Of a DNA stretch of 64,000 nucleotides, positions 25,557-26,642 are shown in pieces (the first letter of the stretch is position 1; each line of letters opens with the position of its first letter). Both the position numbers and the translations under genes were made by a program. The notes under the pieces were generated by a model, which saw only the letters and a list, made by a program, of their open reading frames with translations, was not told the DNA's origin and did no database searches. This DNA is from an uncultured Nitrososphaerota archaeon (GTDB lineage Archaea; Asgardarchaeota; Njordarchaeia; Njordarchaeales; Njordarchaeaceae), in NCBI GenBank assembly GCA_964518475.1, contig CAZFGR010000001.1:1-64000 (forward strand), in the 5' to 3' direction.

Positions 25557-26642
25557 CTAACCTCTCATTTCTTTTTCTAAGAACTTTTTAAGCTCTCTCA
25601 ATAATTTTTTCTCTATCTTATTAAGTCTAGCTTCTAATTCCTTGAGAGAATAATTGTGGATCTCCCCTAATAGCTCTTCTTTTAACTTTTTCACTTCTTC
25701 AAGAATTAATTCTCTAATAAATTCTTCTAATGGCTTCCGAGTATGAATTACTTTCCCATTAATCTGCTCAAGAGATATCTCATCGTTTATAACCTCATTA
25801 TTACACAAAAAAATCACGTTCCCGGGCAACCTCAATACTTCCATGATCTCTTTTTTAACATCTCCAAATCTTTTATCAGTCGGAAAAATAAATTCGTAAC
25901 CTACGCCCTTTTCGTCAATTAAGACTAGAAAACGAGCTCTTCTTTCAAATTCTAATCTACTGATATCGGCCAGTTTATGGAAAATTTTCGCATTCTTCAC
26001 TCTAACTGGCGTTACTTCCTTCATAATAGCATAAGGCAATCCCCCTTCAAGTCTGCTAAGCAACGAAGCTACAGTGTCTTCTACATGGTAAAAAAAGGGA
26101 ATTCTAGTAGTTATTTCAACGTATGAAAATCTCAACTTATCCGCTAATGAATCAGCTACTTGGAAATCTATCTTCACAATCTCGTTATTAGCAACAGTGT
26201 AAGCGGAAACGTCTTTACCGCCTTTTGCGAAAATCACATGTGCATGTACGCCATCTCCAGCCCATCTTAAAAAAGTCTCTGCATCAACTGATGAGTAATT
26301 AGATCCTATCGTATCAGGATGTTTATGCATAATCCCTATTATTGATAGTCCTAGAGGAACTATGGAGAAAATTCTAGCTACTTTATATGGATCAGAAGCA
26401 ATGGATACTGGCGTTTTTTCTGAGTAGGGAAACTCTATTAGGTCGTAAACAATTGCTTCCTTATTCCTAATAAGACCAATCATGTAGAAACCTACTTCGG
26501 TATCTGTTTCATACCCTACTCTAATAGCTTTTTCAAAAGCCTTAGTGTCCATAATAACCTTGTCTACTGATGGCGTAATACCTACTAGTTTCTTCTTTTT
26601 CCTCTTCCTACTTCTCATTAAATCACCATTATTTCTTACCAA
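25557..26642 (-). CDS. JAMM/MPN+ metalloprotease with a putative internal Ubl domain and C-terminal coiled coil
   Basis: EVG...HKHPDTIGSNYSSVD (E, HxH, S, D zinc motif); beta-grasp-like segment FIFPTDKRFGDVKKEI..FLCNNEVINDEISL. Confidence 0.75.
   Translation of the reverse strand: MVRNNGDLMRSRKRKKKKLVGITPSVDKVIMDTKAFEKAIRVGYETDTEVGFYMIGLIRNKEAIVYDLIEFPYSEKTPVSIASDPYKVARIFSIVPLGLSIIGIMHKHPDTIGSNYSSVDAETFLRWAGDGVHAHVIFAKGGKDVSAYTVANNEIVKIDFQVADSLADKLRFSYVEITTRIPFFYHVEDTVASLLSRLEGGLPYAIMKEVTPVRVKNAKIFHKLADISRLEFERRARFLVLIDEKGVGYEFIFPTDKRFGDVKKEIMEVLRLPGNVIFLCNNEVINDEISLEQINGKVIHTRKPLEEFIRELILEEVKKLKEELLGEIHNYSLKELEARLNKIEKKLLRELKKFLEKEMRG

Follow-up and report, generated by a model that had tools for sequence, protein, structure and literature searches.

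A JAMM-type protein with an internal ubiquitin-like domain in a UFM1-like operon of an Asgard archaeon

The UFM1-like operon and its conservation

We analysed a 64,000-nucleotide (nt) stretch of DNA, hereafter the window (contig CAZFGR010000001.1 of assembly GCA_964518475.1, positions 1 to 64,000 of the forward strand), from an uncultured archaeon of the Asgard order Njordarchaeales. The subject is a gene on its minus strand whose 361-amino-acid (aa) product combines a JAMM metalloprotease domain, an internal domain of ubiquitin-like (Ubl) fold and a long C-terminal helix, and which lies in an operon with genes for a UFM1-like modifier, a UBA5-like E1 and a UFC1-like E2. The features of the locus, all on the minus strand, are listed below together with the evidence for each; AF2 denotes AlphaFold2 and pLDDT its predicted local distance difference test score.

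25557..26642, minus: JAMM-Ubl-helix protein, whole gene, 361 aa (open reading frame call; AF2 model, pLDDT 90.3)
26154..26561, minus: JAMM/MPN+ catalytic domain, residues 28-163 (invariant motif, profile matches, VIA, Foldseek)
25722..25952, minus: internal ubiquitin-like beta-grasp domain, residues 231-307, with invariant Tyr249 (DSSP, VIA; 11 full-length relatives)
25560..25730, minus: C-terminal long helix, a putative coiled coil, residues 305-360 (AF2 model, block pLDDT 84-91)
24728..25546, minus: UBA5-like E1, 272 aa (Pfam ThiF, 4.6e-47; best PDB matches UBA5)
24208..24735, minus: UFC1-like E2, 175 aa, with invariant Cys137 (BLASTP match to a paralogue scoring above the UFC1 cut-off of Pfam)
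23799..24089, minus: UFM1-like modifier precursor, 96 aa, ending ...LLG-DDF (family profile against PDB; Foldseek)
26629..27342, minus: SIS-domain gene (SIS_2, 7.4e-26), overlapping the start of the JAMM gene by 14 nt

These genes follow one another in the order SIS, JAMM, E1, E2, Ubl, with a gap of 10 nt between JAMM and E1, an overlap of 8 nt between E1 and E2, and a spacer of 118 nt, AT-rich and with TATA-like runs, between E2 and the gene of the 96-aa Ubl. A first-pass annotation, made from the sequence of the window, had placed a UFM1-like precursor with a DDF tail in the operon of the JAMM gene; this is borne out by the list of open reading frames and by the C-terminus of the Ubl reading frame (...KDLLGDDF-stop). 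The GC content of the operon (0.36-0.38) is the same as that of the remainder of the window.

The main evidence that the protease acts on the E1-E2-Ubl cascade comes from the conservation of this arrangement. Thirteen loci with a JAMM of the same family were examined, from 12 genomes (G000, G290, G289, G284, G287, G119 and G123-G128) and one metagenome contig. In all 13, drawn from several Asgard families, the JAMM gene is directly upstream of a UBA5-like E1 gene, which it abuts or overlaps, and this adjacency is kept across 23-54% identity. Beside the JAMM-E1 pair lie one or two genes for UFC1-like E2s (4 kb away in G128), and a UFM1-like Ubl is present in the cluster wherever it is visible. 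In G119, of the Frey/Jord group, the order of the genes is Ubl-E2-JAMM-E1-E2'; in a further genome, G015, it is E1, JAMM, Ubl, with a Ubl that ends in VVG-stop. At four loci (L030, L039, L043 and L046) the order is E2-JAMM-E1-E2', with two different UFC1-like E2s around the JAMM-E1 pair, whereas the operon in the window has one E2. Within the genus, synteny of the operon with flanking core genes is conserved. The closest loci are found in metagenome-assembled genomes (MAGs) labelled Candidatus Njordarchaeota or Njordarchaeales; remoter family members come from Freyarchaeota/Jordarchaeia and from one MAG labelled Korarchaeota.

The SIS gene is probably co-transcribed with the JAMM gene. It was considered as a component of the system and set aside: its synteny extends to close relatives only (it is present in L001 and absent upstream of JAMM in L003), and it is not a conserved part of the UFM1-type system. 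Just downstream of the operon, at 22457-23390, the window holds a convergent pair of genes overlapping by 38 nt, which encode a nucleotidyltransferase-like protein (weak match to Polbeta) and a HepT-like HEPN protein.

Domains of the JAMM protein

As a single query, the 361-aa protein gave no meaningful match in Pfam (E<=1), NCBIfam or the PDB sequences; matches to VP35 and uL4 (E 0.05-0.5) were discarded as chance. A word-indexed search of 5.8 billion proteins returned three relatives, and a HMMER profile search defined a rare, unannotated family of 35 representatives among 1.84 billion representative proteins; every NCBI-named record looked up for this family is called 'hypothetical protein'. 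To score invariance, the query was aligned with 34 relatives of 14-53% identity to it, which makes 35 family sequences. Residues E49, G56, Y73, G103, H106, H108, S117 and D120 are invariant and P109 is nearly so, giving the JAMM signature E...HxHP...SxxD, in which the paired histidines read H106-K-H108. The E/HxH/S/D motif, described as intact in the first-pass annotation, thus holds throughout the family (E49, H106, H108, S117 and D120). Pfam represents the JAMM/MPN+ metalloproteases by JAB (PF01398) and Prok-JAB (PF14464); Prok-JAB is matched individually by 25 of the 35 sequences (best E 1.3e-9), and the family profile searched against PDB finds BRCC36 (3.6e-8), AfJAMM, PfJAMM1 and CsRpn11, the Rpn11 homologue of Caldiarchaeum.

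An AF2 model was built from the 35-row alignment (mean pLDDT 90.3; predicted template modelling score 0.72). Residues 27-163 of this model superpose on PfJAMM1 (5ld9_A) with a VIA Z of 17.4 and a root mean square deviation (rmsd) of 1.7 A over 127/129 residues, followed by Rpn11 (Z 16.4), BRCC36 and CsRpn11 (6fjv_A; both 15.8) and CSN5 (15.7). Foldseek likewise finds Rpn11, PfJAMM1 and CsRpn11 (E 1.4e-9 to 2.3e-9 for the top two), and a shape search in the ESM Atlas concurs on the JAMM fold. Since the invariant motif, the profile matches and the three shape comparisons agree, the modelled catalytic domain is to be regarded as a genuine MPN+ domain with intact active-site residues.

The first-pass annotation had also described a beta-grasp-like segment and a coiled coil downstream of the JAMM domain, and had proposed a structure prediction of residues ~230-300. 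In the AF2 model a linker region with a helix at 191-210 is followed by a domain of ubiquitin-like fold at residues 231-307. By DSSP it consists of strands 235-241 and 248-254, a helix at 259-270, strands 277-280 and 283-284, a short helix at 291-294 and a strand at 297-302, and this strand-helix order of residues 235-302 is the ubiquitin topology. A wide, unprompted VIA search with residues 231-307 finds the Ubl domain of BAG6 (Z 10.6, 76 residues aligned); SUMO-2 (Z 9.9, rmsd 1.7 A, 69/73) and SUMO-1, Smt3, UBX and the Ubl domain of Ddi2 (Z 9.3-9.8) also match, over the full domain. The annotation's statement that the protein carries its own Ubl-like domain therefore stands with respect to the fold, and fails if it is taken to mean a recognisable sequence copy of the modifier: the internal domain has no sequence likeness to the UFM1-like modifier family (hhalign probability 0.7%), which rules out a duplicated copy with detectable similarity. 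Searched against PDB, the profile of the internal domain gave sub-threshold matches only (ubiquitin, ubiquilin and others; E 0.05-1.9).

In the model, residues 305-360 are an uninterrupted helix (block pLDDT 84-91), so that of the claimed coiled coil the long helix is retained and its coiled-coil nature is putative. The three-part architecture is kept in 11 full-length relatives, down to 23% identity, and Tyr249 of the internal domain is invariant among them; the C-terminal helix is present in all full-length relatives and variable in length. Proteins with the complete JAMM-Ubl-helix chain are found in at least four Asgard families (f1, f2, f18 and f21), and near-full-length matches, ending at profile positions 281-326, in f19 and f20. 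We know of no JAMM enzyme with this architecture and, to our knowledge, no eukaryotic JAMM has an internal Ubl domain. At the other end of the protein, a Lys/Arg-rich patch, RSRKRKKKK (residues 9-17; 26591-26617, minus strand), recurs in most full-length relatives and might bind nucleic acid or the ribosome.

The modifier, its E1 and E2, and a paralogous module

Searches with single Ubl sequences against Pfam, NCBIfam and PDB found nothing meaningful; the Pfam Ufm1 model does not match the modifier, and a 4-sequence Ubl profile had no match in PDB. UFM1 was reached only with a profile of 14 Asgard Ubls, which finds UFM1 essentially alone: UFM1 accounts for each of the top 13 distinct PDB sequences (E 1.2e-3 to 1.4e-2), with an alignment that extends to the terminal Gly. 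The AF2 model of the 96-aa protein (pLDDT 86.2) points the same way in Foldseek, where the top 13 matches are again UFM1 (E 8e-5 to 1.4e-3, TMt 0.66-0.86, rmsd 2.0-2.7); for UFM1 crystal and cryo-EM chains without a fused peptide, TMt is 0.80-0.86 and rmsd 2.0-2.2 A, as against a TMt of ~0.5-0.6 and an rmsd of ~4 A for ubiquitin and SUMO. VIA-align against 48,161 chains sees a generic beta-grasp (TBK1 ULD, Z 9.7; 8tyz_B, Z 9.5). We conclude that the modifier is a distant but specific relative of UFM1, distant because the Pfam Ufm1 model has no match to it and VIA-align does not discriminate. This identity agrees with the Ufm1 homologues reported from nine Asgard clades in a 2026 paper (PMC12962969).

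Four close homologues of the modifier share an invariant ...DLLG, after which they diverge. Among operon-type Asgard Ubls the tails that follow the invariant LLG are DDF, N, LLIN, KSFVY, FFHN, FIHY, L and VFW; all eight of these Ubls carry a tail, and all come from genomes with a JAMM-E1-E2 operon. On the strength of these sequences, an invariant LLG followed by tails variable in sequence and length looks like the pattern expected of a precursor that is cleaved behind one Gly, so that a protease cutting after a mono-Gly would be required.

Human UBA5 is the best PDB match of the E1 (2.7e-25), with ThiF (6e-19) and MoeB behind it. Its GQCDASLATTM aligns to GVCAASLPTTM of UBA5, the stretch with the catalytic Cys (C250 in UBA5; PMC11601596), and its CxxC motif, PCYEC, is aligned to ACFAC. 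Assignment of the E2 is less direct. As a single query it had no direct match in Pfam or PDB, and a 4-sequence E2 profile had none in PDB; its ESM Atlas model is UBC-like in shape and lies nearest to a feature cluster of archaeal UFC1 (score 0.87), which we take as a lead only. It is related by BLASTP (7e-12, with the cysteines aligned) to a 183-aa paralogue in the same genome that scores 29.6-30.1 bits with Pfam UFC1, above the cut-off of 25. When ten orthologues and paralogues of the E2 were scanned, UFC1 was the sole UBC-type Pfam family matched, in half of them (30.1, over the cut-off, 22.3, 18.3, 14.8 and 14.1 bits; the L003 orthologue of the window E2 scores 18.3). A sulfur-carrier function of the SAMP/Urm1 kind was set aside, as there is a dedicated E2 whose Cys is invariant and the E1 retains the UBA5-type catalytic Cys.

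A second, paralogous UFM1-like module lies within the window at 46726-48515 (minus strand), and the gene of the 183-aa E2 lies elsewhere in the genome:

48515-47748, minus: UBA5-like E1 of the second module
47779-47378, minus: 133-aa coiled-coil protein of the second module
47271-46960, minus: tail-less Ubl, 103 aa, ending ...ADMLG-stop
46938-46726, minus: Sec61beta, directly after the tail-less Ubl
G000:C1:178959-179360 (L008:9888-10439), minus: second UFC1-like E2, 183 aa, outside the window; passes the Pfam UFC1 cut-off

E2 and JAMM genes are absent from the cluster at 46726-48515. The 183-aa E2, whose gene is preceded by that of a 127-aa protein that contains several CxxC pairs (L008:10436-10819, minus strand), may serve this tail-less module. 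Core genes around such paralogous modules include PriL, Sec61beta and tpiA. Two genomes of the same genus differ in their arrangement. In G290, an in-frame fusion joins the tail-less Ubl paralogue to Sec61beta (...ADMLG-APPMSEEFWEE...; L026:1183-1803, plus strand). It is reminiscent of the fusions between ubiquitin and ribosomal proteins, and its release would call for a protease; of this JAMM family, G290 has the operon-type copy only. In G288, a 263-aa JAMM paralogue of the family lies between the tail-less Ubl and Sec61beta (Ubl-JAMM-Sec61beta; L045:6267-7600, plus strand); this second family copy is absent from the genome of the window.

Proposed role of the JAMM protein and its evolutionary setting

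The first-pass annotation had noted that no UfSP-like gene is visible in the window and had suggested that the JAMM enzyme takes its place. A search for Peptidase_C78 (PF07910, the UfSP family) found none in the genome at E<=10 (the assembly is 91% complete with 5.8% contamination), and none of 400 Asgard genomes had a match over the cut-off (best single match E 0.0098, 16.6 bits). The UFL1 E3 family (PF09743) reaches E 0.08 at best in the same genome, below the cut-off, and no E3 was found in the operon. One other JAMM was found in the genome:

G000:C25:14327-14629 (L027:1426-1842), minus: stand-alone canonical JAMM, 138 aa (Prok-JAB, 64.4 bits)

It has the sequence EICGVLLG...HSHPGPPRPSKRD, with the x7 spacing, is located between membrane-protein genes, and may be an alternative protease for Ubls or SAMPs.

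From its gene context, the 361-aa protein is probably the Zn-dependent JAMM enzyme that matures and deconjugates the modifier of an Asgard UFM1-type system. We infer its substrate and cleavage site; it is taken to be the maturase because the precursor needs a cut after a mono-Gly, because the JAMM is the only protease conserved in the operon, and because there is a precedent in enzymes of the CsRpn11 class. CsRpn11 both processes a Ubl precursor and deconjugates (PMC6043591). The JAMM would remove the C-terminal DDF after the invariant Gly93 by Zn-dependent hydrolysis, exposing the carboxylate; the UBA5-like E1 would adenylate and thioesterify the mature modifier, which would pass to Cys137 of the E2 and then to targets; and the same JAMM would cleave modifier-lysine isopeptide bonds, thereby recycling the tag. 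Within this lineage it would thus stand in for the papain-like UfSP (Peptidase C78) of eukaryotes. The internal beta-grasp domain and the C-terminal helix would be non-catalytic; they would serve to dock the protease, or to regulate it, at the E1/E2 or at the target that carries the modifier, and the helix may dimerise. Such a docking or regulatory role is probable by analogy with the Ubl domains of eukaryotic deubiquitinases. USP4, USP7, USP11, USP14 and USP15 have an internal, non-conjugatable Ubl (beta-grasp) domain in the protease chain; like the JAMM protein, they are Ubl-modifier proteases with a beta-grasp domain of their own, although they are cysteine proteases of the USP fold. Modelling of a complex between JAMM residues 20-215 and the 96-aa Ubl gave an ipSAE of 0.00 in two runs without controls, a result that speaks neither for nor against binding.

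Several observations weigh against this assignment. The absence of UfSP is not absolute, as the genome is 91% complete. The 138-aa JAMM could also process the modifier precursor, and short tails could be removed by unrelated peptidases. The spacer between H and S in the family is HxHx8SxxD, one residue more than the canonical x7. Lastly, UFM1 is not among the best 50 VIA-align matches of the modifier, its fold alone being non-discriminating.

The JAMM could instead be a deconjugase or regulator only, for example one that edits auto-modification of the E1 or E2 in the manner of Cap3 in CBASS, with the tail removed by the 138-aa JAMM or by a general peptidase. The presence of a second Prok-JAB protein in the genome favours this possibility, as does the occurrence of family JAMMs beside Ubls that already end at Gly (VVG-stop in G015; ...ADMLG at the G288 paralogue), from which it follows that the family is retained even where maturation is not needed. 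We nevertheless consider it unlikely, as all eight operon-type Ubls listed above combine a tail with a JAMM-E1-E2 operon in the genome and as deconjugating JAMMs, for example CsRpn11 (PMC6043591), generally process the precursor of the same Ubl.

It is more doubtful still that the operon is a mobile antiviral module of the Bil, Bub or CBASS kind. Bacterial BilABCD, Bub and CBASS Cap2-Cap3 systems do combine a Ubl (or CD-NTase), an E1, an E2 and a JAMM in one operon, and the four-part composition found here equals that of BilABCD; in addition, the modifier model resembles 8tyz_B, the Ubl chain of a bacterial E1-E2-Ubl complex, and the E1 matches PADLOC 'E1-E2' models by way of its generic ThiF core. 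Cap3 is a JAMM that cuts after a terminus other than GG. Bub systems have their JAMM fused to the E1 (PMC11601596). Against a defence function, no PADLOC model matches the JAMM, the E2 or the Ubl (0 families), and the JAMM domain is nearer in VIA to PfJAMM1, Rpn11 and CsRpn11 (Z 15.8-17.4) than to the bacterial defence enzymes BilC (13.0), Cap3 (12.7) and BubCD (10.6). The setting is that of archaeal core genes, with synteny around the operon within the genus and with paralogous modules amid PriL, Sec61beta and tpiA, and the E1, Ubl and E2 are specifically like UBA5, UFM1 and UFC1.

That the JAMM domain is a dead, non-proteolytic MPN- scaffold, making the protein an adaptor or E3-like factor that works through its Ubl-like domain and coiled coil, would accommodate the lack of a Pfam match for the single protein, the non-canonical x8 spacing and the want of an E3 in the operon or of a significant UFL1 match in the genome, yet it is highly improbable, as MPN- proteins lose E49, H106, H108, S117 and D120, whose invariance at 14-53% identity therefore indicates a selected active site.

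With the 361-aa protein taken as maturase and deconjugase, the system can be set beside those already described. It shares with the eukaryotic UFM1 system (UFM1, UBA5, UFC1, UfSP1/2 and UFL1-DDRGK1) a modifier with UFM1-specific matches, a single C-terminal Gly and a short tail, an E1 closest to UBA5 and a UFC1-like E2. It differs in that its protease is a JAMM metalloenzyme in place of the papain-like C78, in that no UFL1 is detected and the genes form an operon, and in that the Pfam Ufm1 model does not reach the archaeal modifier. The ubiquitin operon of Caldiarchaeum subterraneum (PMC6043591; PMC3082918) is archaeal too and encodes a Ubl precursor together with E1, E2 and JAMM, and the fold of CsRpn11 is like that of the present JAMM (6fjv_A, Z 15.8; Foldseek TMt 0.75-0.78). 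That system is of the ubiquitin type with a RING E3, whereas here the components are of the UFM1/UBA5/UFC1 type, the terminus is a mono-Gly and the JAMM has an extra Ubl-fold domain and a long helix. A further comparison is with JAMM1 of Pyrococcus furiosus (PfJAMM1) and of haloarchaea, which act on SAMPs. Among solved structures that of PfJAMM1 (5ld9_A) is nearest to the catalytic domain; PfJAMM1 is a minimal archaeal JAMM, solved in complex with a Ubl, that binds and cleaves the beta-grasp modifier SAMP2. It is a single domain of ~130 aa acting on SAMPs in an E2-less system, in contrast to the 200 further residues (linker, Ubl fold and helix) and the dedicated E2 found here.

According to two surveys (PMC4327156; PMC10183829), prokaryotes lack UFM1, UFC1 and UFSP2. 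For the paper on Asgard Ufm1 homologues (PMC12962969), a term search finds no mention of an E1, E2, protease, operon or JAMM, and no paper in the literature searched connects a UFM1 homologue from Asgard archaea with a JAMM or with an operon of the UBA5/UFC1 kind. The Ubl-E1-E2-JAMM kind of operon is known already, from Caldiarchaeum and bacterial Bil; what is new is its UFM1-type identity and the JAMM-Ubl-helix architecture.

The suggestion of the first-pass annotation that the ancestral UFM1 system used a JAMM enzyme is unproven and fits the distribution, i.e. JAMM-linked operons in Asgard genomes and no detectable C78. A wider scenario can be offered tentatively. A complete, vertically inherited Asgard UFM1-type pathway might be ancestral to eukaryotic UFMylation, its original JAMM-Ubl-coiled-coil protease having been displaced by UfSP during eukaryogenesis, and the Ubl-like domain and basic N-terminus might tether the protease to the E1/E2 or to the ribosome-translocon. 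The latter would be in line with the paralogous modifier that adjoins or is fused to Sec61beta. For eukaryotic UBA5, a bacterial origin has been proposed (Picchianti et al., PMC10183829). The change from a JAMM to C78 would imply a non-orthologous displacement of the Ubl protease at or before eukaryogenesis. UFMylation is commonly treated as a eukaryote-only pathway; the present locus joins its modifier to UBA5- and UFC1-like enzymes and to a candidate dedicated protease of another catalytic class, and its compact operon represents a minimal system whose four proteins could be assembled in vitro for studying the origin of UFMylation.

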